64,000 nucleotides of DNA from Minisyncoccia bacterium (GTDB lineage: Bacteria > Patescibacteriota > Minisyncoccia > SW-4-49-11). The translations under genes and the position numbers were made by a program. A model generated the notes under the pieces. It saw only the letters and a list, made by a program, of their open reading frames with translations, ran no database searches and was not told where the DNA came from. The DNA lies in contig JBIKWJ010000004.1 of the NCBI GenBank assembly GCA_044356325.1, positions 402-64,401 on the forward strand, written 5' to 3'. Of the stretch, positions 8,518-59,889 are shown one piece after another (the stretch's first letter is position 1; the number at the start of each line of letters is the position of its first letter).

Positions 8518-10386
8518 TTATTCCAATATTCCATCTGCATTATATTTTACAATATACATATCTGGACCAATGGAAGTAGTAAGTTCAGTTTGATTAGTAT
8601 CTCCATTCCCCAAAACAATAGTACCACCAAATTTTCCTACAGAAACAAGACTACCATCTACACTAGCAGAGATATCATTTCCATAATCATCACCAGTTCC
8701 ACCAGCTCTCTTTGCCCAAGCCAAACTTCCATCTGCATTATATTTTGCAGTAATTATATCATATCCTCCTGCACTTGTCAGAGGTACCGCGGATCCATCT
8801 ATTGTTAGAGTATTTTGGAAAAATCCAGTTAATATCACAGACCCATCTGATAAAGCAGCAGATCCCTGAAAAATATCAAAACCACTCCCTCCAATTTTTT
8901 TTACCCAAGCTAAACTTCCATTTGTATTATATTTTGCAACATAACCCTCAGCTACACCCAAATTTGATAATATTGTTTGATTTGACTCTCCTGGTGCAAA
9001 AGTAATCTGTTGACCCCAACCACCTGCCCAACCAGTAATGATACTACTTCCATCACTAAACCCAGTCATACTACTCACAGCATCATATCCATTTCCACCA
9101 GCTCTCTTTGCCCAAGCCAAACTTCCATCTGCATTATATTTTGCTATGAATATAGTATAATTTCCTGTACCTGTATTTAAAGTAGTAGCATTAGGATCCC
9201 CTACGCCAAAGGTTGTATTACTAGCAAAGAAACCTCCTACCATAAAGCTATTGTCAGCAAATGTATGTATTGCTCTTCCTCCTTGATCATGTACACCTTT
9301 TACATCCTTCGCCCAAACCAAGCTTCCATTTGCTGCATATTTTGCAATAAATATATCTGGTCTATCTAAACAGGTTGGTAAACAATCACGACTAGTAAAA
9401 GAAATTTGATTAGATTCACCCTGCCCAAATGTTGCGGTACCAGAGAACATCCCTGTAATAATACTAGTACCGTCAGTAAATGCTCCTAGCCCATAAGCAG
9501 AATCACTTCCATTAAATGTTCCCGCACCTCCGGCTCTTTTTGCCCACATTAATGTTCCATCTACATTGTATTTAGCTAGATAAATATCTTCAAGCCCAGC
9601 ACTCGTTAAATTAACAGCTCCTGTTTCTCCAGGACCAAATGTTATAGTATTTTTAAACCCCCCTGCAACTACAAAAGTACCATCCGCAAAGCTTTTAATC
9701 CGTGTTTCACCTACTATAGGTATATTACCACTAGTTCCACCAGCTCTCTTTGCCCAAACCAAGCTTCCATTTGCATTATATTTAGCAATAGCAAGTTCTG
9801 CAGATCCCGCACTTGTTAAACTAACAGCAACTGTTTCCCCAGCCCCAAATACCGCCGTCCCAGTAAAAGGTCCTGCTACGATACTGCTCCCATCTGATAA
9901 AGCAACTACTGAGTTAGTTCTACCAGTTGTTTCTGTAACAGTTGCTTTTTTTGCCCAGGTAATACTTAGAGCAAAAGAATTTATACCTATAACTTTTCCT
10001 AACTCACCAGTTAATACTTTAAGACTTATTTGTCCATTAGTTGGGTTTAATGCTATCTGATAATTGTCTCCCAAGGGATCTTTCGGTATTGCAGCTATAT
10101 AATCTGGGGCTAATGCACTTAAATTAACGCAATTAGTGGTTACTCCTACTGGACAAATATCTTTATATGATGTTGTAATACCGGTTGGATATGATCGATT
10201 TGTAACAAAATAATTCTCTAATGCTTGATTGATTTTAGTAATATCATCTAATCTAACGGTATTACGAGCTGATTGTAATTGTCTAGCAGGGTTAATTGCA
10301 ACTAATACAATGGAAGCTAATATACCTATTAAAGCTACTACTAATAGTATTTCTAATAAGGTGAAACCTTTTTTTTGTTTTTTCAT
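8518..10386 (-). CDS. Large type IV pilin-like protein: class III prepilin signal fused to about eight SBBP-type beta-propeller repeats
   Basis: N-terminus MKKQKKGFTLLEILLVVALIGILASIVLVAINP (G-F cleavage site, Glu at +5). The repeat (A)KYNADGSLAWAKRAGG(T/N)G is reiterated about eight times, with matching DNA-level internal repeats. Confidence 0.75.
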   Translation of the reverse strand: MKKQKKGFTLLEILLVVALIGILASIVLVAINPARQLQSARNTVRLDDITKINQALENYFVTNRSYPTGITTSYKDICPVGVTTNCVNLSALAPDYIAAIPKDPLGDNYQIALNPTNGQISLKVLTGELGKVIGINSFALSITWAKKATVTETTGRTNSVVALSDGSSIVAGPFTGTAVFGAGETVAVSLTSAGSAELAIAKYNANGSLVWAKRAGGTSGNIPIVGETRIKSFADGTFVVAGGFKNTITFGPGETGAVNLTSAGLEDIYLAKYNVDGTLMWAKRAGGAGTFNGSDSAYGLGAFTDGTSIITGMFSGTATFGQGESNQISFTSRDCLPTCLDRPDIFIAKYAANGSLVWAKDVKGVHDQGGRAIHTFADNSFMVGGFFASNTTFGVGDPNATTLNTGTGNYTIFIAKYNADGSLAWAKRAGGNGYDAVSSMTGFSDGSSIITGWAGGWGQQITFAPGESNQTILSNLGVAEGYVAKYNTNGSLAWVKKIGGSGFDIFQGSAALSDGSVILTGFFQNTLTIDGSAVPLTSAGGYDIITAKYNADGSLAWAKRAGGTGDDYGNDISASVDGSLVSVGKFGGTIVLGNGDTNQTELTTSIGPDMYIVKYNADGILE

Positions 10387-33017: not shown

Positions 33018-33046
33018 TTGACATTTTGTCTAAAATATGCTATATA
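33018..33046 (+). promoter_or_regulatory. Sigma70-like promoter (TTGACA-17-TATATA)
   Basis: Consensus hexamers 28 nt upstream of the ATG at 33074. Confidence 0.5.
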
Positions 33047-33073
33047 TATTATGTTCTTTTCATCGAGGCACTA

Positions 33074-33852
33074 TGGCAAATCGTCGCTATAGCCTTAACA
33101 ATCAGTCCAAACAATCTGGCACCACCTCAGGTGCTAATTCTTCAACAAGCTCTTCACCCCCTTCATCCTCTGCTCCGGCAGGTAATAGTGGTAGTGGAAT
33201 GAAGATTCCATCTGGAGTTTCTCCTGGATTGCTTATCGCTGGTAGTGGTGCCTACCTCTTGGCACGAATGTTCTTCTTTGGGGGTGCTCTCGGGCCTATT
33301 GAGGCAATCGCTATCCTGATTGCAGATGGCTTCGCCTACAAGAACGGAGGCAAGGGACAAAAAAAACTTGCCGCCCTGATCATAGGCTTTACTGCCCTGA
33401 ATCTTGTATTCCCTGGTATTATCCCATGGATAAGAGGATTCCGGGAAGCCCAGATCAACCCTCCTGCTCCAGTTGAACAGGTAGCTCCTCCACCAGTTGA
33501 GGAGCCTCCTCCTTCAACCGAAAGAGTTGTAGTATCTGGTAAGAAAATCACCCTTACAGGTGATGGAACTTACTCGATACCCAAAGGGCGAAAGTCTCTT
33601 TGCTTCACAAACTTGGGAATGAAGGATGGGAGTTCAAATACCTCTCAGTATATGACTTTAAATGGAAAGGAATATATTTCTCTGGGGACAGAATGCCATG
33701 ATCTCCCTGAAGATCTCGAGGGAAAAGTTATCGTAGACTTTTTCCCTGGCAAAGAGTATGGTACTCCTGAAGGAGTGAGAGAACTCTATGCTTATTGGAA
33801 ATCCCAACCAGGAGGACAATCCGAATTACCTATCATTCGACTAGGTGAATAA
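33074..33852 (+). CDS. Hypothetical membrane-associated protein with a Ser/Pro-rich low-complexity N-region
   Basis: Start set at MANRRYSL. The upstream in-frame ATG at 33037 lies inside the promoter -10. The protein has two hydrophobic helices and a proline-rich PPAPVEQVAPPPVEEPPPS segment. Confidence 0.45.
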
Positions 33853-33877: not shown

Positions 33878-33910
33878 AAACCTACCCACTGTGGTAGGTT
33901 TTTTCTTTTT
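33878..33910. terminator. Bidirectional rho-independent terminator between convergent genes
   Basis: cctacc-cact-ggtagg followed by a T-run. Confidence 0.65.
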
Positions 33911-33918
33911 GTAAAGAT

Positions 33919-34833
33919 TCAAACCAAGGCTGAGATAATATATTGTGTGATGAGGAAAGCCCCCATAATTATCATAAGTCCCACCACTGCATTCCTAATT
34001 CCATCTAAAGCCTGACCTACTTCTCCTGGATTAGAACTTGTCATATATTTAAAACCTGACATTACCAGTATTGCAACGGTAATAGCACCTAATATTCCTA
34101 ATAAAGCATTAATAATACCCGCTATAAGATCTGGAATACTATTGAACTTAATAGGATTAGTGAATCCTACACTTTGAGGCGCTGATGAGTCAGTAGTTCC
34201 TCCCCCACCAGTAGATCCAGGAGTAGCAGTACTTGCAGTACAAGTTGGTTTACCACCTTGAGTAGCACAAACTTGCCCAGAGGTACAAGTCTTTCCATCA
34301 CATTTACCATTAACACTTGCATCTTTTGTACAAGTAGGCTTACCTCCCTGAGTGGCACATACTTGCCCAGAAGTACAGGTCTTTCCATCACAAGTATCAG
34401 CCGTTGAACCTCCTGAGGTTGATCCACCAGGACTACCTGGTGGTTTTTTACTAATGTCACATGGTCCTGTTTTAGGCCCTGGAGCTCTACATACACCTAA
34501 TTCACCACCAGATTTACAAGCATCTCCAATTATAACACAATCTTCCCACCCATTCTTCTCAGAATCAAGTGTTTTACAAGTCAATGGATTATTTTTTGCT
34601 ACACTATCTGCATTTGTCCTATCACAAAAACCACTTTCAGTCTGCGTTGCAGTTCCTGCAGATTGCCCTCTTCCTCCAGTAGTTACTTCTCTTTGATAGG
34701 TACAATCATCTCCATTTTTTTTACCAGAACATGCGGTATTTTGTGGAGAACTCTGAGCAAAGCTATTCTGAGGGATAATTAATCCTATACCTAATAAAAG
34801 TGAGAATAAAATATATTTCATACTAATTTGCAT
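33919..34833 (-). CDS. Secreted Cys-rich protein with two 30-aa tandem repeats and a C-terminal VirB2/TrbC-like pilin hairpin (array member 7)
   Basis: Signal peptide present. Repeat CDGKTCTSGQVCATQGGKPTCT appears twice. C-terminus LIAGIINALLGILGAITVAILVMSGFKYMTSSNPGEVGQALDGIRNAVVGLMIIMGAFLITQYI is the shared paralogous hairpin. Confidence 0.6.
   Translation of the reverse strand: MQISMKYILFSLLLGIGLIIPQNSFAQSSPQNTACSGKKNGDDCTYQREVTTGGRGQSAGTATQTESGFCDRTNADSVAKNNPLTCKTLDSEKNGWEDCVIIGDACKSGGELGVCRAPGPKTGPCDISKKPPGSPGGSTSGGSTADTCDGKTCTSGQVCATQGGKPTCTKDASVNGKCDGKTCTSGQVCATQGGKPTCTASTATPGSTGGGGTTDSSAPQSVGFTNPIKFNSIPDLIAGIINALLGILGAITVAILVMSGFKYMTSSNPGEVGQALDGIRNAVVGLMIIMGAFLITQYIISALV
34238..34395. 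repeat. Tandem in-frame DNA repeat, 2 x ~90 bp (63-bp near-identical cores)
   Basis: acaagt(t/a)gg(t/c)ttacc(a/t)cc(t/c)tgagt(a/g)gcaca(a/t)acttgcccaga(g/a)gtaca(a/g)gtctttccatcaca appears at 34240 and 34330. Confidence 0.8.
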
Positions 34834-35239
34834 TTAATGGTATATTGATATCATCTACTGTGTCATCTGCTGGGAATACAAATCCTAATACGGTATTGGA
34901 TACGACAAAGGCAAAGAATATAATAATCAGTCCTATGATTGCATTTACCATTCTTTTTTGAGCTGATTCAGCCTGCTTCTCATCCCCTCCTGCTGTTGCA
35001 TATTCAAATCCTGCATATAGGAATATAATAAATATTATAATTCCTATAAATCCTAATATCCACCTTATAATAATCGACACTGTCTCTATCAGGCTTGGTC
35101 CCTCAGCTATTCCGGTATTAATTGGGATTGTCCCTGGATCAGGGAGAGTGGCATCAGGGGCTCTTTGAGCTAGAGATATATTAGAACTTAATACAAATCC
35201 CCCCATCAATAAAGCTATTATAATCAATAAGACTCTCAT
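34823..35239 (-). CDS. VirB2/TrbC-like pilin-family protein (array member 6)
   Basis: Signal peptide, then IIRWILGFIGIIIFIIFLYAGFEYATAGGDEKQAESAQKRMVNAIIGLIIIFFAFVVSNTVLGFVF. This is two hydrophobic helices joined by a short Gly-rich loop, as in T4SS pilins. Confidence 0.55.
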   Translation of the reverse strand: MRVLLIIIALLMGGFVLSSNISLAQRAPDATLPDPGTIPINTGIAEGPSLIETVSIIIRWILGFIGIIIFIIFLYAGFEYATAGGDEKQAESAQKRMVNAIIGLIIIFFAFVVSNTVLGFVFPADDTVDDINIPLNAN

Positions 35240-35299
35240 ATCTATTTTACTATTCTATATATTACAAGTATATCAAGTATTCTATTATCTGACAAGAAG

Positions 35300-35560
35300 A
35301 TGTATAAGATGAGGAAATTGTAGACACTGAGTTCTATTCAAAGTGTAAGCTTGTATTTTATCCACCCCGTCTCCTCCCATACAAAAGTATGAGAGGAGAC
35401 ACCCCTCAAGAGGGGAATTTTTCGTACAGTACATTTTTATATATTCCCCTCTTGAGGGGTGCCGTCGCTAGACGGTGGGGTGGAATACGGGCGACTGTAA
35501 GGTCACCCCTACACAACTCACACTTTATCTAGATATATGTCTCATCTTCTGAAGAAGATG
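35300..35560. repeat. GC-rich palindromic repeat element (MITE/REP-like) with AT-rich terminal motifs, inside the pilin array
   Basis: Near-perfect ~130-bp palindrome: ccaccccgtctcctcc...cccctcaagaggggaatttttcgtacagtac | atttt...ttcccctcttgaggggtg...gacggtggggtgg. The same modules occur at 53911-54272 in opposite orientation. Confidence 0.75.
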
Positions 35561-35643
35561 AGACAAAGGATATAGTCTATCCCCTAAATAATAAAAAGGG
35601 ATATGATAATCCCTTTTTATTATTTGTATATTAGATACATTAT

Positions 35644-36030
35644 TTAGACATTTCCTTGGAATACGAATGACAATACTGCATTTGAAGCAACAAAGGCAAA
35701 GAATATAATAATTAATCCAATTACTGCATTAATCATTCGAGATGTTGCACTTTTTGCTTTTCCTTCATCTCCTCCTGCTGTTGCATATTCAAATCCTGCA
35801 AATAAGAAGATAATAAATATAACAATTCCAATAAATCCTAATGCCCATCGAATAACGAGAGAGATGGTTCCTGTCAAACTAGTAGATTGAAAAACTCCTG
35901 TTCCAGTTGGAATAACTCCTATTCCTCTATTATCTGGGGTAGGTGATACAGCTCCAGCTAAAGCAGGTGCTAATACTAATAAAGGTAATAATACTCTTGT
36001 CACTATTGATTTTATTCTGGAGTTATTCAT
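35644..36030 (-). CDS. VirB2/TrbC-like pilin-family protein (array member 5)
   Basis: Start trimmed to MNNSRIKSIVTRVLLPLLVLAPALAGA (signal peptide). Hairpin is IRWALGFIGIVIFIIFLFAGFEYATAGGDEGKAKSATSRMINAVIGLIIIFFAFVASNAVLSFVF. Confidence 0.55.
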   Translation of the reverse strand: MNNSRIKSIVTRVLLPLLVLAPALAGAVSPTPDNRGIGVIPTGTGVFQSTSLTGTISLVIRWALGFIGIVIFIIFLFAGFEYATAGGDEGKAKSATSRMINAVIGLIIIFFAFVASNAVLSFVFQGNV

Positions 36031-36129
36031 AAGAATATCTATAATTATTAAATAATATGTCCTATAAGTATATATTATCATATAATATATACTTATGCAA
36101 GTAATAGCATTGTGGATAAGTCTATTATA

Positions 36130-36468
36130 TTATAAGCCAAAGACAAATCCTAAGACCGCATTAGACAAAACAAATGCTAACCCTACAATAAACACTCCTA
36201 TTACTGCTGCTGCAATTCTACTTATGGCTTCTTCGGTTTTTTTAGGATCTCCCCCTGCTGTTGCATATTGGAATCCAGAAAATAGTATAAGGACAAATAA
36301 TATTATCCCTATTAACCCGAGGCTCCATCTTACAATAGCAGATACAAAGGTAAATATATCTCCTTGTTCTGTTACCCCAGTACCAGTAGGAATACCCAAA
36401 ACAGGTGGTACAGATTCCTGAGCTTTGGCTGTAGCTATTATAAGATTTGCTATAAGTTTTTCTAACAT
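36130..36468 (-). CDS. VirB2/TrbC-like pilin-family protein (array member 4)
   Basis: VRWSLGLIGIILFVLILFSGFQYATAGGDPKKTEEAISRIAAAVIGVFIVGLAFVLSNAVLGFVFGL. Confidence 0.55.
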   Translation of the reverse strand: MLEKLIANLIIATAKAQESVPPVLGIPTGTGVTEQGDIFTFVSAIVRWSLGLIGIILFVLILFSGFQYATAGGDPKKTEEAISRIAAAVIGVFIVGLAFVLSNAVLGFVFGL

Positions 36469-36479
36469 ATATAAGATTA

Positions 36480-37151
36480 TTAAGCGCCAGCAGCAAGTAA
36501 ACCACTAGTTACAAAATTAGTAATGAGGAATGCCCCCATAATAATAAGCAATCCAATCACGGCATTGGTAATAGCTCCTGTAGCAGCTGCTGTTTGGCTA
36601 GCATTTCCAGAGGACGTCATATAAAGATATCCTTGTAATACAATGATTATAAAAAATACAGTTCCAAGAAGCCCTAATATCCAGCGTATAATATTAGCGA
36701 CATATCCTATGAGAGTTCCTCCTGTATTAAGTCCTGATCCAGCATTTCTGAATTGATTTAACCCCTGAGACAGTCCATTTGATTCACTATTAATATTATT
36801 ACCGCCAGTTGTAGGTGTTCCATTTGGAGAGTTTGGTGTATTTGGATTTTGCTTAGCATCTGCTGCAGGTTTTAATGTATTGGCTTTAGGTACAGGAGCA
36901 CATACAATTTCCTTTGCTTGATTTTGAATACATGCTTGTCCAGAGCTACATTTAACAGTAGAGTCTCCTCGGCAATCTCCATTACTTTCTGCCTGATTTT
37001 CCAAACATTTTGTAGCACCATCTACTGTTACACAGACAAAATCTCCCGTACAGTTAGGACCAGTGCCACAAGCAGCTAAAGCATTATCTGCCCCCCCCAT
37101 AAATCCGATTGCAAATAGAATTGCTAAACTTGTTGATAAAATAAATCTCAT
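36480..37151 (-). CDS. Secreted Cys-rich protein with a C-terminal VirB2/TrbC-like hairpin (array member 3)
   Basis: Signal peptide. Cys module CGTGPNCTGDFVCVTVDGATKC...CRGDSTVKCSSGQACIQNQAKEIVC. C-terminus IRWILGLLGTVFFIIIVLQGYLYMTSSGNASQTAAATGAITNAVIGLLIIMGAFLITNFV. Confidence 0.55.
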   Translation of the reverse strand: MRFILSTSLAILFAIGFMGGADNALAACGTGPNCTGDFVCVTVDGATKCLENQAESNGDCRGDSTVKCSSGQACIQNQAKEIVCAPVPKANTLKPAADAKQNPNTPNSPNGTPTTGGNNINSESNGLSQGLNQFRNAGSGLNTGGTLIGYVANIIRWILGLLGTVFFIIIVLQGYLYMTSSGNASQTAAATGAITNAVIGLLIIMGAFLITNFVTSGLLAAGA

Positions 37152-37181: not shown

Positions 37182-37904
37182 TCATCTTTTTCTTAATTTC
37201 CAAATAAATAACCCAAGCCCCCCAGCAAGAAATAGTATTCCTCCTATTAAAATAGCTATATTTCCGGATGTTTTAGATTGTTCTGGATCTGAATTTGTAT
37301 CAGTATTAGGGGTAGGAGTATTGGTAGATAATAGTATAGTTCCTGCCTCATCTCGAATAACTCCATTTTCTTTTTGAAGGGTTTTCTGAGTTTCCTCTGA
37401 TAATGTAATATCTGGACCAAGACAATCTGCTATACAGGTATTATTATTCTCCCCTTTTTCATATTCACAGACATTATTTTGATTGCAAGTACTGTCCTTG
37501 GTTACATCTATATTCAATACTTTTCCATTTTGACTCTTGATATTAATAGCCTTAACATGAGGGAAATAAGGAATATTTATCACAAAAGTACCTTCTTTAT
37601 AGGGATATATTAGAGTTTGAGGAAAAGTGTATTGATAAGCCTCTAAATTTACCTGGAAATTATTATCTACAGGAAGAGCTGCTCTATCGTAAATACTTAA
37701 AGTATCATCAGTATCCTGTACCTGTATTGGCTCTGAGACAAATTTATCTAGACGAATTTCATCAGTAGCTTTGTCATAAAATAAAGATACTTGATAACTT
37801 TTGGCAGTACTAATCAATGGGAGGAATAGTAGGGTTAAGAATATGGTGTAAAAAGAGAATTTCATAGTATTGATATTATTGTTTACAAGCCCCTGTTTGC
37901 TCAT
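37182..37904 (-). CDS. Secreted protein with a small Cys module and a C-terminal TM anchor (array member 2). Start is ambiguous; 37865 is the alternative.
   Basis: Signal peptide MKFSFYTIFLTLLFLPLISTA, module DSTCNQNNVCEYEKGENNNTCIADC, and C-terminal anchor ILIGGILFLAGGLGLFIWKLRKR. It lacks the pilin hairpin. Confidence 0.5.
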   Translation of the reverse strand: MSKQGLVNNNINTMKFSFYTIFLTLLFLPLISTAKSYQVSLFYDKATDEIRLDKFVSEPIQVQDTDDTLSIYDRAALPVDNNFQVNLEAYQYTFPQTLIYPYKEGTFVINIPYFPHVKAINIKSQNGKVLNIDVTKDSTCNQNNVCEYEKGENNNTCIADCLGPDITLSEETQKTLQKENGVIRDEAGTILLSTNTPTPNTDTNSDPEQSKTSGNIAILIGGILFLAGGLGLFIWKLRKR

Positions 37905-39375
37905 CAGCTAACATTTTAGCGCAGGTTTCTGCAAATGGATATGCTCTAGTTTTATCATTTTGTTGTTCACAACCCACAATACTTGCCCACTGACATCTAT
38001 AAGAGCTGTTCCTAAATGATTGACAGTCAGTAATTCCGTTCTTTTTCAAAGTAGCAGCAACTGCTGCATCTTGATATTGTGGAGCCATATTATAATACGC
38101 AAATGTACCCTCTTTGATAGTATAAGTACCTGGTTTAACTGTGGGGACGCCCGCTACGGCTGCCCAAGAAGCCCAAGTAGTTGACAACATCTGAAATCTA
38201 CCATAAGCATCACTGTTAAGTCCGGTAGTATTGTATAGATTAGGATTTTCTGCTCCTGGATGTATATTTTGAGATTGAGGATACATTTTTCCACCTACTA
38301 ATCTAAAATAGCCCGACCTATCAGAGGCTCCTTCATAAAAAGATATAGTTCGCATTACGGCAGATATATTATCATCTAAATTAGTTGCGTCTACACAAGC
38401 AACACTTAATGATCCAACATTACCACTACCTCCACCTGTGGTTGCCGCGCCTCCTCCATTTGAGCCATTATCATTAAAAGTGCTCGCAGTGTCACATTTT
38501 ACTTCGAATATTTTACCTGATTGAAAAGTGAATACTGCTGAGAAATTTTGTTCTTGGAAACCAAGCCCTACGAGGAGAAAACTAAATAAGAGAAAACTTG
38601 ACATTACGAGTAATAGACCAATTACCGCATTAGTAATAATGCTATATCCTGTACTTACCCCCCCAGGATTACCGGCTGAGGTAAGTATATATACTCCACC
38701 AATTACAATACTTAATACTGCCAGTGAAGCGAGTAGACCCAAAGCTAAATTAAAGATGTCTCGAATTAAGATAAATATATCACAAATAGTACAGTCTCTA
38801 CTGGTACCACATTTAACAAGTCCTGTTTCTGAATTGGTTGAGCTTCCATTAGTTGTTCCACCACCAGTATTGACTAGTCCAGGAGTATTAGAACCAGTTG
38901 AACCCCCAGAGGTACCGACTTGGTTGCCTCCTCCACCAGCATTAGATCCAGATGGTGAATTAGTGGTACCACCAATAGTTGCATTTTCTTTTATACATTT
39001 AAAGTTACTACATTTAAGACCTGCTACACATTCATTTCCATTCCCAGAACAAGACTGTCCTTCTGTTTTATTTCCTCTTGGGCTGGAACAAACTTGATTA
39101 ATACAAGCCAATCCATTTTGACAGGTATCTCCGGAGCAAGATGATCCTAAACTTCTACGACAAGTTAACCCTAATCCTAGATTATTTTTATCTTTAACTT
39201 GGCATTTTCCATTTAAACGAGAAATCCCATTTTGAAATGTACAATTTTGCTCTAATGCTGTTGCCCTAGCACTACAGGCTCCATCAGCTGTCTGAGCATA
39301 AGTAGATTTAATACTAAAAAATGAAGCTATTAAAAAGATTATACTAAAGACTATACCAAACTTTATATATTTCAT
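37876..39375 (-). CDS. Tripartite secreted protein (array member 1): Cys-rich N-domain, central VirB2/TrbC-like hairpin, and C-terminal phage-lambda-type lysozyme/lytic transglycosylase domain
   Basis: Signal peptide, then Cys modules (CSGDTCQNGLACINQVC, CSGNGNECVAGLKCSNFKC) and a Gly/Thr-rich linker. Hairpin is IRDIFNLALGLLASLAVLSIVIGGVYILTSAGNPGGVSTGYSIITNAVIGLLLVMSSFLLF. The C-terminal ISFYEGASDRSGYFRLVGGKMYP...AYGRFQMLSTTWASW aligns with lambda R lysozyme (LAWSEGTD...YDVIVGG...AGRYQLLSRWWDAY), including the catalytic Glu. Confidence 0.65.
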   Translation of the reverse strand: MKYIKFGIVFSIIFLIASFFSIKSTYAQTADGACSARATALEQNCTFQNGISRLNGKCQVKDKNNLGLGLTCRRSLGSSCSGDTCQNGLACINQVCSSPRGNKTEGQSCSGNGNECVAGLKCSNFKCIKENATIGGTTNSPSGSNAGGGGNQVGTSGGSTGSNTPGLVNTGGGTTNGSSTNSETGLVKCGTSRDCTICDIFILIRDIFNLALGLLASLAVLSIVIGGVYILTSAGNPGGVSTGYSIITNAVIGLLLVMSSFLLFSFLLVGLGFQEQNFSAVFTFQSGKIFEVKCDTASTFNDNGSNGGGAATTGGGSGNVGSLSVACVDATNLDDNISAVMRTISFYEGASDRSGYFRLVGGKMYPQSQNIHPGAENPNLYNTTGLNSDAYGRFQMLSTTWASWAAVAGVPTVKPGTYTIKEGTFAYYNMAPQYQDAAVAATLKKNGITDCQSFRNSSYRCQWASIVGCEQQNDKTRAYPFAETCAKMLADEQTGACKQ

Positions 39376-40718
39376 CTTTTTACATTATCAGCTAATGTTT
39401 GTATTTCTGATTCAGCTTGACTAATAGCTTTGGTATAATCAAGTAATCCTGAGTTTACTGAATTAATAGACTCAATAAATATTTTATCTACTGAATTATT
39501 ATCTGGTTGTCTCCAAGTTTTGGCTTGTAAAATTTGTTTTACAAATACTCCATAATCACTATCCTGAGATTGAGTATCCACCAAATCTCTTCTGGCTGTT
39601 GGTCGCTTGGTTTTCAAGAAATACTCTTGAGCATTTTCCTTTTCAGTAGCTGATTTGAGGAATGCAAAAGATTCTTTAGGATATTTGGATTGACCGCTGA
39701 CTCCATATCCCCAATAATTTGCATAGTTAGCAAGTCCAGAATCTAGTGATACTTGAGGAAGAGGTGCTACCGCAAAATTAAGTCTTGGAGCTTTTGCTTT
39801 AATTGCTTCTATTTGATAAGAATATCCAAATATCATAGCTACTTCCCTCTCATAAAAAGCATCTATTGAATTATTGAGGGTTGAATTCCAACTATACACT
39901 GATTTTCGAGGATTAGCAAAATCAGTATAATAGGTTAAAGCTAATGTTCCTGGAGAGATATTTTGTCCATTGATATTTTTTCCTTGTGAGAATGTAATTC
40001 TACTAGAATCTTTGGGATCAGTAAATTGAGCACCTGTTTGTAACATTAATGACATTAATATATCAGGGGAACGATTTATATTATCCCCTGTTCCTAATGC
40101 AACTCCTGCTTGTGTAATATTCCCAAATTGGTCTATTTTAGTTAATTCCGGGACAATTTTTTGTAATTCTTCCCAAGTTGCTGGTGGATTTGCAATTCCG
40201 GCATCATTAAATGCATCTTTATTATATAATAATGCTAAAGTATCAGTGTATAGCGGAAATCCATATATTTTACCATCATCAATAAAATCTTGACCAACAA
40301 CATCCACAAAGCGATCTTTATAATCTTTTATGGTCATAATCTCTTCTGACATTGGAGCTAATTTATTCTTATGCTTACCAAGCCAAGTATGTTCTATAGC
40401 AAATATATCTGGCCCTCTCCCTTCAGCTAAAGCATTAATAAGTTCTGTCTCATAATCTTGAGGCTTAAATTTACGATATTCTATACTAACACTAGGATAT
40501 GTTTTACGAAAATCACCTCCTAATTTTGTCATTGTATCGGTTTCATCCCAAACACCCCATACTACCAAGTTTACTTTTGCTACTTGTTTCCTACCTCCAG
40601 CTTGGAACCCAAGAGCATTTCCTAACATCAAAATAACAACTGCCAATATAGCTACTCCAGCAATAATAATTAATTTACGATTTTTGGTAAATGAATCAAG
40701 AGAGTTATTCCCTGCCAT
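39372..40718 (-). CDS. Membrane-anchored extracellular solute-binding protein (ABC-type, family 1, sugar-like) with no cognate permease or ATPase in the window
   Basis: 448 aa with an N-terminal TM anchor and MalE-like fold signatures (LVVWGVWDET ... YRKFKPQDYETELINALAEGRGPDIF). Its stop overlaps the start of the lysozyme-pilin gene (ATGA). Confidence 0.7.
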   Translation of the reverse strand: MAGNNSLDSFTKNRKLIIIAGVAILAVVILMLGNALGFQAGGRKQVAKVNLVVWGVWDETDTMTKLGGDFRKTYPSVSIEYRKFKPQDYETELINALAEGRGPDIFAIEHTWLGKHKNKLAPMSEEIMTIKDYKDRFVDVVGQDFIDDGKIYGFPLYTDTLALLYNKDAFNDAGIANPPATWEELQKIVPELTKIDQFGNITQAGVALGTGDNINRSPDILMSLMLQTGAQFTDPKDSSRITFSQGKNINGQNISPGTLALTYYTDFANPRKSVYSWNSTLNNSIDAFYEREVAMIFGYSYQIEAIKAKAPRLNFAVAPLPQVSLDSGLANYANYWGYGVSGQSKYPKESFAFLKSATEKENAQEYFLKTKRPTARRDLVDTQSQDSDYGVFVKQILQAKTWRQPDNNSVDKIFIESINSVNSGLLDYTKAISQAESEIQTLADNVKR

Positions 40719-40720
40719 AT

Positions 40721-41263
40721 TTATGATTTTTTAAATATATACCCATAATGATATTTACCTGCATCAATTTTATGATCAATTTCAAAACCATTATTTTGTA
40801 TCAGAGAAACTAATTCTCTCTCAGGAATTCTTGATGATTTGAGAGGTCCTATTGGGCTTGCTATATCCCATTCTATTATGACTAATTTTCCTTTTTCTTT
40901 TAATATTTTATGAGCTTCTTTGAGCAAATGTTTTTTATCATTTACTTGAAAAAGGATATTATGTATCATAACTCTATCTACTGATTCTTTTGGTAAAGTA
41001 GAGCCACTATCAGTCTCAAGATTGGTCAAAATAAGTTCAATATTGGTAATCCCTTGAATTTTATATTTACTCCTGAGAGATTGATGAGCTGATTCCATTA
41101 CATCAATTGCTAATACTTTCCCTGTTGGCTGAATAAATTGAGCAATAGCAATGGAAAAGTCTCCAGCCCCTGATCCAAAATCAGCAATTTTCATTCCAAT
41201 TTCTAAATCAAACTGCTTTACTATTTCACGAGGTGATAGAAATCGAGTAGTGGTTTCTAACAT
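40721..41263 (-). CDS. Class I SAM-dependent methyltransferase
   Basis: Motif I IADFGSGAGDFS and the Rossmann pattern. It lies 2 nt from the start of the next gene. Confidence 0.7.
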   Translation of the reverse strand: MLETTTRFLSPREIVKQFDLEIGMKIADFGSGAGDFSIAIAQFIQPTGKVLAIDVMESAHQSLRSKYKIQGITNIELILTNLETDSGSTLPKESVDRVMIHNILFQVNDKKHLLKEAHKILKEKGKLVIIEWDIASPIGPLKSSRIPERELVSLIQNNGFEIDHKIDAGKYHYGYIFKKS

Positions 41264-55875: not shown

Positions 55876-58800
55876 TTATTTGTTAAGTACTTGTCGCACA
55901 GCTTCTTTAATTCCTATCATCTTACTTGGTTGCAAGAATGTGGATAGAGGTTGTATTATATTGTTAGTATTCGGAAGTTTGACTGGCTTCCAAAATCCAG
56001 AGGTTGGTATTTTACTATCAGAACTAAACTCAGCCCAATTAAATATTTGGTTAAAATCTTCTGCTGACTTTATACCTTTAAAAGATAAATATTCTCGGAA
56101 TAGTTGAACATTCTGATTGTTTGGATTAGGGTTGCTTACAATAGCATCGTATAGCCAGTTTTTACCTGCATCAGTTTGTACATAAGTATCTAATACCTGC
56201 TTACCTAAATTAGAGTCATAAGGCAAGTTCCCTAATTCATTAGCGATATATCTCTGCACTACACCTAAAGAGTTTGTTCCTTTAGTTAATTCCACCATAT
56301 CTGGAGCATCTTCAAATCTAGCTAAAATAGTCTGATTCAAAACGTTTCTTAATTCATCAGAGTTTATGTTATTAACTACTTCAGACATTTGCTCTGGACT
56401 TAAGTTAGCAAAGTCAGTAAGACTATTAACTCCAAATCCATTAGATAAAAATGTAGATCCTTCACCTATATTGATTATAGAGTTATAGATTACTTCTCTT
56501 CCATAATCATCTGTAAAATATGATTGTATAATTTCTTTAGCTTGTAAATCTGTAAGATTTTGCTTACCTAATATTTCAGATAAATCTCTAGTAAATTTAC
56601 TAGTTGCAACTGGTGGAACTTCTGGAGCTAGAGTTGATACTGGAGCTTCGGCTGCTGGTGGAACTGTAGGCTCTGATCCTAAAGATTCAGTGCCTAATGG
56701 TGATGATGCTGGTGTTTCGGGATATCCTGGCTCAATAGTAGGAGATTCTGCTGGAGATGGAGCAACATATTCTGTCGGTTGGAATGCCTCAAGATGATCT
56801 ATGTTAAAATGACTAATTCCCTCTAATTGACCCGGACCTAGATATCTTGAAACTTCATATAATTGCTCTTTTGAAAGACTGGCCATTTCATTAGCATTAT
56901 CTATTCCCCATTGTGCTAATAATCCTCTTCCCCCTTCTGTACCTTGCGCTAATTGAAACATCGTATTCTGACCTACTCCCGACTGCACATAATTTTCTAG
57001 GGCATGCTGTATTTGGTCTGGACTAGCATTTGGCCCTAATTGTTTAGCTATTTCTCCCCATAAAGTCTCACCTTTACTTAATTGAGATATATCTTGTAAT
57101 TGTACAGAAGGATTATCAGGACTATCTATAATATCTGGTTTAGGAGTATTGGTAATCTGCTCTGGATTAAAAATTCCTCCTGGCCTCATCATATCAACTG
57201 CTAATGAGGTCATAAGGCCTCCACCCACTGCTGTTCCTACTACATTTGCAATAAGTCTATTCCTTTGTTGTTTTTGTAATTCTGTAATACGTTCTTTTGA
57301 TAAAGTAGTTAATAATCTACTTGTATATTGCTGATTATATTCTGGGGAAGAGAATATAAATTTCTCAGGTTGAGCTTTTACCTCACCTTCATCACTATTA
57401 CTATTCTCTGAATTTATGGTTTCACCCTCAATTTTATTAATATTAGTAAGAAGCTCTTCTTTTTCGGGCTGTTTTGCAATACTTTCACGCTGTACTCTTG
57501 TACCTAATTCATTTAATATGGCCTCATAAGCTGTTTGCTGTGATTCATTAGTAAATTTACCACCATTAAGGCGATAATAGGCCTCGAGTGTACTAAGCTT
57601 TGTACTAAGATCAACATCCTTTGCCTCCTTAATATATCCTTCTTGTAATGACTCCCCTACTAATTTTGGTATAGCTGCTTGAAAATTAATATTCAAACCA
57701 AATTTATTGATTTTAATACTCCCATCTTCAAAACCAGCACGAGCTAATTCTCGACTTGATACTCCAGACATAAGACTTGATACAGAACGCCTCAATACTG
57801 CGAGTCCTCCCGCAACAGGTAATCCAAATCCTGTTAATGCTAAGGTAGTTCCTACTCCAAAGGCTACCAAATTGAGTCTACTAATAAATTTTTTATGTTT
57901 AATAGCAAAATTGAAAAATCTTTCTTTTAGTGGATTTATTGCCTTCTCAAATCCAGATTGTAATTCTTGTGATTGTAATATTCTTTCTTCTCTCAAATTC
58001 TTAACCTCTTGTGTAAAGACTCTATGAATTTCTGACTCTAAACCTTGAGCTGACATAATACCAATAACTTCCTCAACTGTTTGATTATATTCTCCCCTTA
58101 GTCTTTCTAATTCTAGTTTTGCACTCTCATCATTACGATTTCTATTATACAATTCTTCAGCTCGGGCATAAGCTTTTCTCAAATTATCAAGTTGTGCTTT
58201 TGAGCTAGTTTCTAATTGCTCATCTTGTTTAGAAGTATCACCTATAGTTTCTGTAACCTGAACATTTGGTAATTCTTCAGCTGGGGTTAATTTAGGAGTT
58301 TTATCTATTGGGTATAAAGGAGATTCTTCTTCTGGATTTGGTAAAATATGCTCAATTGGAGTATCCGACGGATCTACAATTATAGGTTCTAAGAATTCCT
58401 TATCATTTAATACTCCTTCTATCCAATCTGGAGTATTTGGATTTAATCCTTCTATGATATAACCTAATTTTTTGTTTTCATTATTACTTGTATATATGAT
58501 ACGAACTGGTCTTGATTTAGCAAAAATCTCCTCAAAAGTCCTTGGGCGATTTAGTTCAACTTCATTACCCTCATTATCAACAATATGTGTAATATTACCT
58601 TCAGTGTTAAGTTTAATAGTCCCTGTACTTACAAGAGAATTTTTAGCATCTGATATGTTAATTAAATCTCTATGTGCTATTAATATATCTCTTAGTTGTG
58701 GTAATTTCCGAGAGAGATGTCCATCAAGTTTATGTGATAATTTTTCCACTTTATCCCAAGCATCTGTTTCTAATTGTCTATAAACATTTTGAACAGATTC

Positions 58801-59889
58801 AGTTCTAAGATTTGGTGCATGTGTGTCACCAAATTCTTTATACTTTTGTATAGCTTCACGTGCTTCTTGTTTTAATAGTTCAATTTCTGCACTATTATCA
58901 AGGGTTTCTAATTCTCCTTCACCAGGATATATTTTACCCTCTATTCTAGCTAATGCACCTCCCGTTTCTCGTTCAACAATACTATCAACTACACCATTTA
59001 ATTCTTCCTGTAATGATTCTTCTCCAGGTAATTTATCAAGTAGTATTTCTGTCTCTACATCTAATCCGGAAGGACTTGTTTCAGATGGAGGTGTATTATC
59101 ATCTTGAAAATACGGATACCTATTTAGTATTTCATTTAATTCAGGATCAATAACTCTTTTATCTATAGATTTACCACTTGCTGAATGAGTTAACTCCTCT
59201 ACTGACCCTCCCCCCTGTTGAGAATCTGGCTCTTCTTCTATTTGAGGTTCTTCTGAATTTAAGGGTTCAAGACCAATTTTTTCTCTCCAAATATTAATAT
59301 TCTTTGGAGTTAATTCATTATTTTGCAATTCTGCTGGAATTAAACCTTCTTCTTGGACTATTCTTCTGAGGTCAAATCTTGCCTGATTACCTTTCTTTCC
59401 TTCAGGAATACCGAGTAATGTTGCAAAGGTTGGGATTATAGATCGTGAAAGTTCATACTTTATTTCGTTATCTGATAATTCAAGAATCCCATCCTTTATC
59501 CTACCCGATTGAGTCCATGTTATTTGATGTAGGGTAGATTCTTTTGATTCATTGCCTTCTTCTGGATCAGGAGATTCTACAGAAGGGACATATTCTGATA
59601 ATCCATATGCCAGCCGAATAGTATTTATCATATACAAATATACCCCTGATATATTTCCTTCTCTTTTCAAATCTAATGCTTCTTGATAATGTGGAAATTG
59701 CTCTAAAACTGGCACAACGCCCTTAGATGTAATAGCATCGATCAGTTGTAGTTTTTCTGTTTTTGTAAGCTGAAGCCAACCTGGTAATTCTCCCCCATGT
59801 TTTTTATGTGCTTTTGAAGCTTCACGAGTTACAAAAGGCATAGATGATTCTTGTTCCACGAATCTAAGTTGTTCTGGTGATCTTCCCAT
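55876..59889 (-). CDS. Giant (1337-aa) acidic hypothetical protein with central TM helices, coiled-coil and Pro/Glu-rich segments
   Basis: Uninterrupted 4-kb ORF. TM candidates are FGVGTTLALTGFGLPVAGGLAVL and LIANVVGTAVGGGLMTSLAV. No recognisable catalytic motifs. Confidence 0.6.
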   Translation of the reverse strand: MGRSPEQLRFVEQESSMPFVTREASKAHKKHGGELPGWLQLTKTEKLQLIDAITSKGVVPVLEQFPHYQEALDLKREGNISGVYLYMINTIRLAYGLSEYVPSVESPDPEEGNESKESTLHQITWTQSGRIKDGILELSDNEIKYELSRSIIPTFATLLGIPEGKKGNQARFDLRRIVQEEGLIPAELQNNELTPKNINIWREKIGLEPLNSEEPQIEEEPDSQQGGGSVEELTHSASGKSIDKRVIDPELNEILNRYPYFQDDNTPPSETSPSGLDVETEILLDKLPGEESLQEELNGVVDSIVERETGGALARIEGKIYPGEGELETLDNSAEIELLKQEAREAIQKYKEFGDTHAPNLRTESVQNVYRQLETDAWDKVEKLSHKLDGHLSRKLPQLRDILIAHRDLINISDAKNSLVSTGTIKLNTEGNITHIVDNEGNEVELNRPRTFEEIFAKSRPVRIIYTSNNENKKLGYIIEGLNPNTPDWIEGVLNDKEFLEPIIVDPSDTPIEHILPNPEEESPLYPIDKTPKLTPAEELPNVQVTETIGDTSKQDEQLETSSKAQLDNLRKAYARAEELYNRNRNDESAKLELERLRGEYNQTVEEVIGIMSAQGLESEIHRVFTQEVKNLREERILQSQELQSGFEKAINPLKERFFNFAIKHKKFISRLNLVAFGVGTTLALTGFGLPVAGGLAVLRRSVSSLMSGVSSRELARAGFEDGSIKINKFGLNINFQAAIPKLVGESLQEGYIKEAKDVDLSTKLSTLEAYYRLNGGKFTNESQQTAYEAILNELGTRVQRESIAKQPEKEELLTNINKIEGETINSENSNSDEGEVKAQPEKFIFSSPEYNQQYTSRLLTTLSKERITELQKQQRNRLIANVVGTAVGGGLMTSLAVDMMRPGGIFNPEQITNTPKPDIIDSPDNPSVQLQDISQLSKGETLWGEIAKQLGPNASPDQIQHALENYVQSGVGQNTMFQLAQGTEGGRGLLAQWGIDNANEMASLSKEQLYEVSRYLGPGQLEGISHFNIDHLEAFQPTEYVAPSPAESPTIEPGYPETPASSPLGTESLGSEPTVPPAAEAPVSTLAPEVPPVATSKFTRDLSEILGKQNLTDLQAKEIIQSYFTDDYGREVIYNSIINIGEGSTFLSNGFGVNSLTDFANLSPEQMSEVVNNINSDELRNVLNQTILARFEDAPDMVELTKGTNSLGVVQRYIANELGNLPYDSNLGKQVLDTYVQTDAGKNWLYDAIVSNPNPNNQNVQLFREYLSFKGIKSAEDFNQIFNWAEFSSDSKIPTSGFWKPVKLPNTNNIIQPLSTFLQPSKMIGIKEAVRQVLNK

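Follow-up and report, generated by a model that had tools for sequence, protein, structure and literature searches.

A membrane-tethered, MalE-like solute-binding protein conserved beside VirB2-like pilin arrays in Patescibacteria

Solute-binding proteins in importers, secretion systems and surface assemblies

Solute-binding protein (SBP) genes of the CUT1 type usually adjoin their own permease genes, as in malEFG, ugpBAEC and msmEFG. The MalE-type CUT1 SBPs, which include T. maritima MalE1/MBP, GacH and the Listeria sophoro-oligosaccharide-binding protein, share a Pfam family and a two-lobed fold with the patescibacterial SBP described here; the cleft retains its acidic and aromatic positions, and both are membrane-tethered as in monoderms and extracytoplasmic, in the present case by prediction. 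Unlike the genes of MalE-type importers, this SBP gene sits after a SAM methyltransferase gene and ahead of a VirB2-like array, without permease or ATPase neighbours across 87 loci.

SBPs have also been linked to type IV secretion systems (T4SS). PrgZ/TraC are pheromone-binding lipoproteins of enterococcal conjugative plasmids, which carry an MPF-FATA T4SS; PrgZ, a peptide binder of the OppA-like family 5, is encoded in a regulatory region and borrows the chromosomal Opp permease, and MPF-FATA systems are not known to have VirB2 pilins. The SBP described here is likewise found in a T4SS-related locus without a permease of its own and is membrane-tethered in a monoderm envelope, but it is of the family-1 sugar type and adjoins pilin genes. 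In Agrobacterium, ChvE strengthens the induction of the VirB T4SS by VirA/VirG and also serves its own ABC transporter. ChvE is comparable as an SBP for sugars whose function is bound up with a T4SS; it differs in having a ribose-binding-protein-like fold, in acting through a histidine kinase and in not being encoded beside virB2, and such a kinase is absent here from both the window (the whole 64-kb stretch of DNA analysed) and the conserved neighbourhood. Finally, the SBPs of the Sulfolobus 'bindosome' carry class III (type-IV-pilin-like) signal peptides, depend on the Bas assembly system and still feed ABC transporters. They provide a precedent for SBPs joined to a pilus-like surface assembly, although the present SBP has an ordinary signal anchor and its neighbours are VirB2-type (T4SS) rather than type IV pilins.

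Patescibacteria (CPR) are host-dependent and poor in recognisable transporters (PMC4508563). Their VirB2 arrays, as described in the main text of Quinonero-Coronel et al. 2025 (PMC12102498), likewise consist of tandem, highly divergent PF18895 genes, sometimes with a non-pilin interruption, and the same text reports the Patescibacteria T4SS as homologous to MPF-FATA. That study analyses virB4 neighbourhoods and its main text mentions neither an SBP nor a methyltransferase partner, while the array described here, as compared with those in that text, has no virB4 within 64 kb. Work cited there reports VirB2-like arrays as essential for epibiotic growth of a cultured Saccharimonadia strain (cited in PMC12102498). 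A search of the accessible literature found no paper tying an SBP to Patescibacteria pilin arrays.

The solute-binding protein, its anchor and its putative cleft

The SBP gene and the gene ahead of it occupy the following positions of the window:

40721..41263 (-): class-I SAM-dependent methyltransferase, 180 aa, no transmembrane (TM) segment, Pfam Methyltransf_31/UbiE-like
40605..40673 (-): N-terminal signal-anchor of the SBP, hydrophobic, residues ~16-38, as read from sequence
39372..40718 (-): SBP gene, membrane-tethered family-1 (MalE-like) solute-binding protein, 448 aa, ATG start

The SBP matches Pfam SBP_bac_1 (PF01547) at 2.9e-31 and 110 bits (cut-off 26) over residues 58-363, spanning profile positions 3-306 of 307, and SBP_bac_8 at 1.3e-28; its Pfam class is family 1/8 and not SBP_bac_5, the OppA-like family-5 peptide-binding fold. 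Together with the hydrophobic segment, the PF01547 match bears out the first-pass annotation of a family-1 SBP with an N-terminal TM anchor. Other resources were less specific: NCBIfam returned MalE/GanS/UgpB matches that were all far below threshold, PHROGs gave one weak match to a function-unknown family, and the IMG label reads 'multiple sugar transport system substrate-binding protein'.

The AlphaFold (AF2) model of the SBP (pLDDT 90.7, pTM 0.85) has the two-lobed fold of oligosaccharide-binding SBPs. In a Foldseek search the best E values ranged from 1e-27 to 1e-22 with TM scores of 0.7-0.84; in the PDB, E reached 9e-27 with target-normalised TM scores of 0.72-0.84, and the top 40 structures were oligosaccharide SBPs without exception (40/40), which fits the idea of carbohydrate binding put forward from the sequence at first; identity to any solved structure is only 18-22%. 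When the SBP was aligned with E. coli MalE by hhalign (probability 98), a comparison of sequences only, the MalE sugar ligands E44 and E111 fell on E90 (nearly invariant) and D159 (invariant), and W230 on the conserved Y301. The family alignment holds 30 invariant columns, about half of them aromatic, pocket conservation being judged here on the sequence alignment. These features suggest that the inter-lobe cleft binds a putative small, oligosaccharide-type ligand.

The N-terminus of the SBP (MAGNNSLDSFTKNRK-LIIIAGVAILAVVILMLGNALGF) forms a hydrophobic stretch of ~23 residues. In the AF2 model a helix covers residues 8-35, pLDDT falls below 50 at residues 34-44, and a low-confidence linker follows the anchor at residues 36-48. 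An N-terminal hydrophobic segment is present in 83 of 84 SBP family members, with a lipobox instead in three, and the median tether between anchor and SBP domain is 14 aa in these 84. The sequence (...KNRK-LIIIAGVAIL...) has neither a G/A-F/L cleavage motif nor a conserved Glu5, as a class III signal peptide would. The export signal and tether are thus predicted to place the SBP domain outside the cytoplasm.

Neither fold nor tether sets the protein apart from an importer component. The fold is not distinguishable from that of transporter SBPs, all of the nearest structures are transporter SBPs, and a membrane tether is typical of importer SBPs in monoderms. These observations favour the alternative that this is an ordinary CUT1 importer SBP whose permeases and ATPase are encoded remotely and possibly shared, and whose adjacency to pilin genes reflects inherited order or co-regulation. 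In the same direction, a cytoplasmic GH13 alpha-amylase without a signal peptide (5393-6934) hints at intracellular use of alpha-glucan oligosaccharides.

The pilin array and its junction with the SBP gene

Downstream of the SBP gene the window holds six T4SS_pilin (PF18895) genes between 33919 and 39375, an array being defined as at least two in tandem:

39372..39375 (-): ATGA stop/start overlap of the SBP gene and the first pilin gene, from the junction sequence
37876..39375 (-): first pilin, 499 aa, with Cys-rich N-domain, VirB2-like T4SS_pilin hairpin and lysozyme C-domain
38575-38769 (-): T4SS_pilin hairpin of the first pilin, residues 203-267
37969-38313 (-): lambda-R/GH104-like lysozyme C-domain of the first pilin, residues ~355-469
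37182..37904 (-): 240-aa secreted protein (p240) with C-terminal TM anchor, matching no Pfam family
36480..37151 (-): T4SS_pilin, 223 aa (Pfam 4.5e-8; pilin HMM 1e-21)
36130..36468 (-): T4SS_pilin, 112 aa (Pfam 1.2e-11)
35644..36081 (-): T4SS_pilin, 145 aa (Pfam 5.7e-10)
35390..35408 (-): terminator-like hairpin in a 404-nt gap inside the array, from a consensus scan only
34823..35239 (-): T4SS_pilin, 138 aa (Pfam 8.2e-10)
33919..34833 (-): T4SS_pilin, 304 aa, last array gene (Pfam 2.6e-10), with Cys-rich repeats in its N-domain
33878..33901 (both strands): terminator-like hairpin between the array end and the convergent gene 33037-33852

The SBP gene therefore lies directly upstream of a pilin array, as the first-pass annotation had it, with the first pilin gene and five further T4SS_pilin genes downstream. 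The first pilin matches Pfam T4SS_pilin narrowly (26.8 bits, cut-off 26.6) and a purpose-built pilin HMM at 7e-18, and the pilin at 36130..36468 comes close to the threshold of NCBIfam NF045849 (Mycoplasma ICE pilin-like conjugal transfer protein). Homologues of the 240-aa protein stand in the equivalent, second-gene position at 23 loci. Among the ~49 ORFs scanned in the window no VirB4-, VirB6- or VirD4-type Pfam match and no other T4SS core gene was found.

The C-domain of the first pilin resembles phage lambda-type endolysins (PHROG phrog_90, 5.9e-8; BLASTP 1e-7 against lambda R), and phmmer gave zero matches for the pilin-lysozyme in the PDB. Apart from the window, just one homologous locus (L009) has this lysozyme domain, so a lysozyme link cannot explain the conserved coupling; for the same reason an MltF-like combination of SBP and transglycosylase was rejected. 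The coupling originally described to a lysozyme-pilin gene is accordingly kept for the first pilin gene in general, and not for its lysozyme domain.

The junction itself, aaaagATGAaat, is as first annotated: the SBP stop codon TGA (39374-39372) overlaps the ATG (39375-39373) of ORF 37876..39375. No other pair of neighbouring ORFs of 100 aa or more on the same strand overlaps by 4 nt in the window, and an identical SBP/pilin overlap recurs at 15 of 73 homologous loci, the gap being 30 nt or less at 56 of the 73. Genes in the window are densely packed and co-directional, with gaps of 5-6 nt from GatB to GyrA, and because these housekeeping genes are equally tight, close spacing of SBP and pilin is by itself weak evidence. 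A scan for terminator-like hairpins found none from the methyltransferase gene to the fifth array gene, and the hairpin at 35390..35408 probably ends the methyltransferase-SBP-pilin transcript. A sigma-70 promoter scan (74 matches, 56 expected) was uninformative in this AT-rich DNA.

The ATGA overlap, as a means of coupling the SBP stoichiometrically to the first pilin, is among the points in favour of a second alternative, an SBP-fold assembly factor or chaperone that would bind pilin subunits, or a glycan or peptide that they carry, at the face of the membrane and aid their maturation or polymerisation. An SBP held at the membrane surface would be where VirB2-type subunits accumulate. On the other hand, family-1 MalE-like SBPs are known as binders of small molecules, and the MalE-equivalent cleft residues are conserved here.

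A conserved methyltransferase-SBP-pilin module

Far from being peculiar to this locus, the pairing of SBP and pilin genes is conserved in hundreds of Patescibacteria genomes. In this group the SBP family comprises at least 1588 clusters at 50% identity; examples from complete or nearly complete genomes are OZ246411.1 (an 844-kb chromosome), CAZBFM010000001.1 (653 kb), JBDRIV010000002.1, CAVVCK010000001.1 and DAIMCS010000001.1. A same-strand pilin gene starts less than 1 kb after the SBP stop in 73 of 79 species-level loci anchored on the SBP, and a pilin is the immediate downstream neighbour in 71 of the 79 examined. The link holds under differing upstream contexts (GyrA-methyltransferase, SMC-ComM and NTP-transferase), is kept down to 35% SBP identity, and is retained after tandem duplication of the SBP (L086) and after an SBP-SBP fusion (L087). 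This persistence through changes of upstream context, duplication and fusion speaks against the importer reading, as inherited gene order alone does not explain it.

The SAM methyltransferase is a third conserved partner, which had been overlooked in the first-pass annotation. Its stop lies 2 nt ahead of the SBP start, and its NCBIfam matches are generic methyltransferases only, below threshold. At 60 of 84 loci it stands directly upstream of the SBP; in the alternative context it is found two genes downstream. Loci from JGI metagenomes anchored on the methyltransferase, a sample independent of the SBP-anchored one and drawn with a profile from a narrower methyltransferase alignment, show the order methyltransferase-SBP-pilins in 45 of 48 cases and methyltransferase-pilins without an SBP in the other 3 of 48. 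A block of methyltransferase and pilins without an SBP is also found in Ca. Yanofskyibacterium PMX_810_sub, so that a minority of arrays (these 3/48 loci and PMX_810_sub) do without the SBP. The presence of a methyltransferase in the trio would suit a pilin-processing module and hence the assembly-factor reading; that arrays occur, and are expressed, without an SBP argues against it.

A protein of 516-555 aa with 9-10 TM segments, which lies near some arrays and matches no Pfam family, was considered as a hidden partner and rejected, since it is limited to ~8 loci, splits into two clusters that are unrelated to each other, and does not occur in the window.

With regard to evolutionary rate, the SBP evolves slowly and the pilins are hypervariable: median identity is 44% for the SBP where GyrA has 54%, and ~34% or less for the pilins. 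Slow evolution of the SBP would fit a nutrient role, as the importer reading requires, and would also suit an assembly factor binding the conserved TM hairpin of the pilins; with both of its sides considered, the latter reading is decidedly improbable. In combination with the short tether, slow evolution points to a conserved small ligand or a conserved partner. The suggestion made at first, that the SBP might recognise a partner cell's glycan, is unlikely, because the protein is held to its own membrane by a tether of ~14 residues and evolves as slowly as housekeeping genes beside hypervariable pilins. What stands of the broader proposal is a possible accessory of the appendage, perhaps with a part in uptake, which the conserved pilin linkage, the missing nearby transporter and the oligosaccharide-SBP fold all favour, with partner-glycan recognition removed from it.

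Absence of importer and signalling partners near the SBP gene

The first-pass annotation noted that permease and ATPase genes were absent from the window, and this extends to within 10 kb of the SBP at 87 homologous loci. A Pfam search of ~49 ORFs, almost all those of 130 aa or more in the 64-kb window, gave no BPD_transp_1 permease and no ABC_tran ATPase. At none of the 87 loci did the 10 kb on either side of the SBP yield a type-I permease, nor is any permease or ATPase annotated within 10 kb at L001-L005, L086 and L087. Across 1.2 Mb of flanks, a regular expression for the EAA permease motif had zero matches, and one for Walker A plus LSGGQ retrieved five ORFs, all of them SMC. As such expressions may be insensitive, Pfam was run instead on every cluster of multi-TM ORFs in these 1.2 Mb of flanks from 85 loci, and none of the 50 ORFs in 22 clusters matched BPD_transp_1. 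Near the SBP, in the window and flanks, neither the permease (PF00528) nor the transporter-type ABC ATPase of a CUT1 importer is therefore present.

Three Paceibacterales genomes have no type-I sugar permease KOs (K02025/K02026) and do have other orphan SBPs (PMC10936435 Table S4); one of the three, PMX_810_sub, the one in which the SBP family was sought, is the genome with methyltransferase and pilins and no SBP. Both this and the finding, over the window and 10-kb flanks, of a permease beside the SBP in 0 of 87 loci, against the usual CUT1 gene order, weigh against an ordinary importer. On balance, an importer SBP with remotely encoded partners appears somewhat unlikely.

A further alternative is a ligand sensor that would steer the module by acting on a signalling partner, in the style of ChvE-VirA or LuxP-LuxQ. 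SBP co-receptors are known in T4SS regulation, ChvE being the example, and a RodZ-like HTH membrane protein is encoded in the cluster of the alternative context. However, this gene is limited to one sub-lineage, and no histidine kinase, chemoreceptor or other transducer occurs in the window or the conserved neighbourhood, which makes such a sensor highly improbable.

Proposed role of the SBP

The gene nearly always heads the pilin cluster and is never beside transporter genes, and for this reason the SBP appears to be built into a surface apparatus. Our preferred reading, to which we give about an even chance of being correct, is that a MalE/CUT1-type Venus-flytrap receptor has been recruited as a fixed part of a methyltransferase-SBP-pilin module and is not a neighbouring importer's subunit. 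According to this reading, methyltransferase, SBP and first pilins would share one transcript, no terminator having been detected between them, and translation of the first pilin may be coupled to that of the SBP through the ATGA overlap. Once exported, the SBP would be held in its own membrane by the uncleaved signal anchor, or by a lipid anchor in a few orthologues, and since it is anchored on a tether of ~14 residues its two-lobed domain, as modelled, would lie at the outer face of the membrane, near the 2-TM pilin subunits. The cleft, whose fold and conserved positions resemble those of sugar binders, may hold a conserved, small, soluble ligand of oligosaccharide type. Where an importer SBP would meet a MalFG-type permease, the liganded SBP could then dock on a membrane component of the pilin module, and docking may either signal to the apparatus that a glycan from the host or the wall is present or pass the ligand on for uptake.

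A more far-reaching version, which must be considered improbable, is that methyltransferase, SBP and VirB2-like proteins work together in Paceibacteria and ABY1-type Patescibacteria as a surface machine that depends on the SBP, and in which the receptor would feed or gate a VirB2-like 2-TM conduit (or its T4SS) and not an ABC permease.

Concluding remarks

An abundant SBP that is now mis-filed as a 'sugar ABC transporter' SBP is linked to pilin arrays and a methyltransferase in hundreds of genomes of the Patescibacteria, a group that accounts for a large part of bacterial diversity. When the metabolism of CPR bacteria is reconstructed from their genomes, such SBPs are doubtful evidence of sugar import by ABC transporters. 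Being a soluble, easily expressed handle on the module, the SBP lends itself to in vitro screening for its ligand and to prediction of its partners from paired alignments, and natural arrays without an SBP, one of them from the archaeon-parasitising Yanofskyibacterium, are ready comparisons. If the surface-machine reading is true, it would provide these transporter-poor, sugar-fermenting epibionts with a route to acquire oligosaccharides derived from their hosts.

Solute-binding protein gene and its junction with the pilin array

The window has a GC content of ~35%, nearly all of its genes lie on the - strand, and their homologues are found in Paceibacteria/Parcubacteria MAGs. A family-1 solute-binding protein (SBP) gene stands there between a methyltransferase (MTase) gene and an array of VirB2-like pilin genes:

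40721-41263, - strand: MTase, a small class-I SAM methyltransferase without a specific NCBIfam equivalog (also in homologous loci L001-L167)
39372..40718, - strand: SBP, 448 aa; Pfam SBP_bac_1 at 110 bits (cut-off 26), also SBP_bac_8
37876..39375, - strand: first pilin gene, a T4SS_pilin (VirB2-like) hairpin with a lambda-type endolysin-like C-terminal domain
thereafter: a 240-aa anchored protein, then five further T4SS_pilin genes (Pfam)

The SBP begins with a hydrophobic segment of ~23 residues, and its TGA overlaps the ATG of ORF 37876..39375 (aaaagATGAaat), the sole 4-nt overlap between adjacent ORFs of >=100 aa in the window, which holds one SBP and six pilin genes as counted with a pilin HMM. 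Pfam scans of ~49 ORFs of the window returned no ABC permease or transporter ATPase; the first-pass annotation, which had reported the SBP, its anchor, the overlap and a window free of transporter genes, was thus confirmed in every particular.

On the - strand, the only terminator-like hairpins lie within the 404-nt gap that follows the fifth array gene and beyond the final gene; their positions, in what is a weak scan, would be consistent with a single transcript running from the MTase (or further upstream) through the SBP to the first pilins. The non-coding gap (35240-35643, hairpin at 35390-35408) divides the six-gene array, separating the SBP-joined 5' part from a 3' pair (34823-35239 and 33919-34833). 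The small pilin at 36130-36468 (-) scores 35.2 bits, against a cut-off of 40, with the NCBIfam Mycoplasma ICE model 'Mbov_0395 family pilin-like conjugal transfer protein', a near-cut-off match that would tie these arrays to monoderm conjugation systems. The endolysin likeness of the first pilin is supported by PHROG (endolysin, 5.9e-8) and by BLASTP against what we take to be the lambda R sequence (1e-7). This lambda-R/GH104-like lysozyme domain (37876-38313, -), fused to the C-terminus of the VirB2-like pilin, was found only in the window and in one other locus (L009) among those compared, and is therefore not the cause of the SBP-pilin coupling. VirB1 is reported to be lacking in the majority of genomes that encode VirB2 homologues (PMC12102498), and the pilin-fused domain could be a substitute for it.

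Fold and predicted cleft

Public annotation names the SBP a 'multiple sugar transport system substrate-binding protein'. Its nearest solved relatives by sequence are maltose/maltodextrin and other oligosaccharide SBPs, the best being T. maritima MalE1 (2.4e-18), while NCBIfam matches (MalE/GanS/UgpB) are all far below threshold. AlphaFold2, run with 84 family members, gave a confident model (pLDDT 90.7, pTM 0.85) in which a helix at the N-terminus (8-35) is followed by a disordered linker (36-48) and then by the entire two-lobed SBP domain. The top Foldseek matches in the PDB are oligosaccharide-binding SBPs only (Tlet_1705, GacH, sophoro-oligosaccharide BP, mannooligosaccharide BP, maltotriose BP and MalE; E 1e-27 to 1e-22, TM 0.7-0.84, identity 18-22%). 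When the family was aligned by profile to what we take to be the E. coli MalE sequence (probability 98), the presumed sugar-ligand residues E44, E111 and W230 fell on E90 (nearly invariant), D159 (invariant) and Y301, respectively. Across the 84 sequences (42-96% identity), 30 columns are invariant and approximately half of these are aromatic. Fold and conserved cleft positions would fit a functional carbohydrate cleft, so the carbohydrate-binding role proposed in the first-pass annotation is probably correct, the ligand itself being inferred.

Search for transporter genes

CUT1 SBP genes, whose products serve MalE/MalFG-type sugar importers, usually adjoin their two permease genes, so that their absence near this SBP is a clear departure. 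No BPD_transp_1 (permease) or ABC_tran (ATPase) domain is annotated <=10 kb from the SBP in homologous loci L001-L005 or in the distant members L086 and L087. The flanks of 85 loci (1.2 Mb) contain only 50 ORFs with >=4 predicted TM segments, and their 22 clusters include PrsW, Wzy_C, LGT, Vut_1, CitMHS, PAP2 and similar families but never BPD_transp_1. Five flanking ORFs with Walker A and LSGGQ motifs were ruled out as transporter ATPases, all being SMC proteins. Just past some arrays, the opposite strand encodes recurrent proteins, 516-555 aa long, that carry 9-10 TM segments and match no Pfam family (L042 6166-7716, L064 8152-9801, L073 13573-15240, L086 14530-16080, and L067/L082/L084/L085 at about 14-16 kb); they form two unrelated clusters without a homologue in the window.

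That the protein is an ordinary importer SBP with remotely encoded permeases would agree with its canonical fold and with the cytoplasmic GH13 amylase that the window encodes, and we regard this as unlikely, if still a serious contender. The GH13 alpha-amylase-family enzyme (5393-6934, -) has no signal peptide and would thus be cytoplasmic, which implies intracellular alpha-glucan/maltodextrin metabolism, though no recognisable sugar importer is found in the window. For three Paceibacterales genomes, the permeases listed are ABC-2, FtsX/MacB-type and one iron-complex only, and peptide/nickel (K02035) and polar amino-acid (K02030) SBPs occur without cognate permease KOs (PMC10936435 Table S4). 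This suggests that orphan SBPs may be a general trait of the group. One of the three, PMX_810_sub, carries an MTase-pilin block devoid of an SBP.

Conservation of the SBP-pilin association

The family is large, with 1546 homologues at E<=1e-10 in a 90%-clustered database, at least 1588 clusters at E<=1e-30 among 50%-identity representatives and relatives encoded in at least 589 GTDB species genomes; the record names are Patescibacteria (Paceibacteria, Yanofsky-, Portnoy-, Azam-, Doudna- and Falkowbacteria). The same order was read from precomputed gene calls with their Pfam hits, Lactamase_B_3 - GyrA - SAM methyltransferase - SBP - T4SS_pilin array, for homologues at 71%, 54% and 48% identity. 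In 85 loci analyzed with ORF calls of our own and with a pilin HMM iterated from the six window pilins as seed, a same-strand pilin gene starts <=1 kb past the SBP stop in 73 of the 79 with >=500 nt downstream, and among the six exceptions the downstream genes of L002 and L008 are pilins by Pfam. The pilin is the immediate next gene in 71 of these 73 loci, the gap is <=30 nt in 56 and a 4-nt overlap occurs in 15, with three to eight pilin genes per array. Upstream neighbours vary by lineage (GyrA-MTase, SMC-ComM or NTP-transferase) while the SBP-to-pilin junction is constant, which bears out the earlier proposal of an accessory of the appendage. L086 (35% identity) encodes two tandem SBPs followed by six pilins, and L087 a fused double SBP of 845 aa followed by four. 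These double SBPs (L086 8697-11422, L087 56-2593) still stand directly ahead of pilin arrays, and their arrangement suggests that the protein may work in pairs or dimers.

Loci chosen by their SBP cannot reveal the frequency of SBP-less arrays, and a metagenome scan was therefore anchored on the MTase. Among 48 loci with >=2 kb downstream, 45 have the order MTase-SBP-pilin(s) and three (L096, L135, L137) MTase-pilin(s) without an SBP. In the published Ca. Yanofskyibacterium PMX_810_sub, which lives as a parasite on a methanogenic archaeon (PMC10936435), a GyrA fragment is followed by a methyltransferase (00754), by four T4SS pilin genes (00753-00750) and by tRNA-Leu, and expression of all of these on day 14 is documented (PMC10936435, supplementary file 4); this block (PMX_810_sub_00750-00755) has the SBP-less form. 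The conserved unit is thus a trio of MTase, SBP and pilin array in which the SBP is usual, not obligatory. Speculatively, and from the single case of a parasite of an archaeon, the SBP ligand is possibly tied to bacterial hosts. Linkage of the MTase to the array is as tight as that of the SBP: it lies directly upstream in most loci, pilins follow it directly where the SBP is absent, and some loci have the alternative order SBP-pilin-RodZ-like-MTase. Either the pilins or the SBP may be substrates of the MTase.

Tether, evolutionary rate and proposed role

A strongly hydrophobic N-terminal segment is present in 83 of 84 family members (a lipobox in three), and a median of 14 residues separates it from the first beta-strand. 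Such a short predicted tether would keep the SBP domain close to the membrane of its own cell, under the wall, with no plausible reach to a glycan on another cell. Across 51 genome pairs, median identity to the window proteins is 44% for the SBP, 54% for GyrA and 40% for the methyltransferase, whereas the best small pilin reaches ~34% and is often undetectable. Slow evolution relative to the pilins argues that the SBP recognises a conserved small ligand or conserved partner, not a variable host surface. Both the tether and this rate make the suggested recognition of a glycan on a partner cell unlikely; the first-pass interpretation is thus supported in part.

Given the fold, anchor, overlap, conserved synteny, absence of nearby transporter genes and slow evolution demonstrated here, the best-supported reading is that a transporter-type SBP has been co-opted into a T4SS-pilin module. 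More specifically, it is about an even call that a MalE-like Venus-flytrap receptor became a permanent part of the VirB2-like pilin module and is expressed together with it. From its anchorage on the outer face of the membrane, the receptor would bind a conserved soluble oligosaccharide-type ligand in its cleft; the resulting signal, or the cargo, would go to some membrane component of the module in place of a MalFG-type permease. A role as pilin chaperone or assembly factor appears improbable, and one as co-receptor for a putative transducer more improbable still. PrgZ/TraC, ChvE and the Sulfolobus bindosome are functional precedents, although in each case a defining feature of the system is absent here.

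Other features of the window and related loci

The window also encodes a PilM-like type IV pilus component (1768-2970, -) and a pseudopilin of 622 aa that bears an N_methyl motif and beta-propeller repeats (8518-10386, -); together with the VirB2-like array, these indicate that the organism combines appendage genes of the T4P type with those of the VirB2 type. ORF 55876-59889 (-; 1337 aa) has no Pfam match at E<=0.001. In eleven loci (L025, L028, L039, L040, L048, L049, L051, L055, L111, L143 and L157) gyrA ORFs measure 1200-1344 aa, versus ~810-830 aa elsewhere, and are probably intein-containing genes in several Patescibacteria.

Relation to described pilin arrays

A recent survey by Quinonero-Coronel et al. 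2025 (PMC12102498) describes 441 Patescibacteria VirB2 arrays of 2-11 genes, the members of an array sharing ~25% identity; the genes around virB4 are what it analyses, and a solute- or substrate-binding protein is nowhere mentioned in the main text. A literature search, thin in subscription journals, retrieved no paper linking an SBP to Patescibacteria pilin arrays. The SBP-pilin association is robust and not previously described in the literature searched, it concerns a very large and poorly understood group of bacteria, and the hypotheses that it raises are directly testable.
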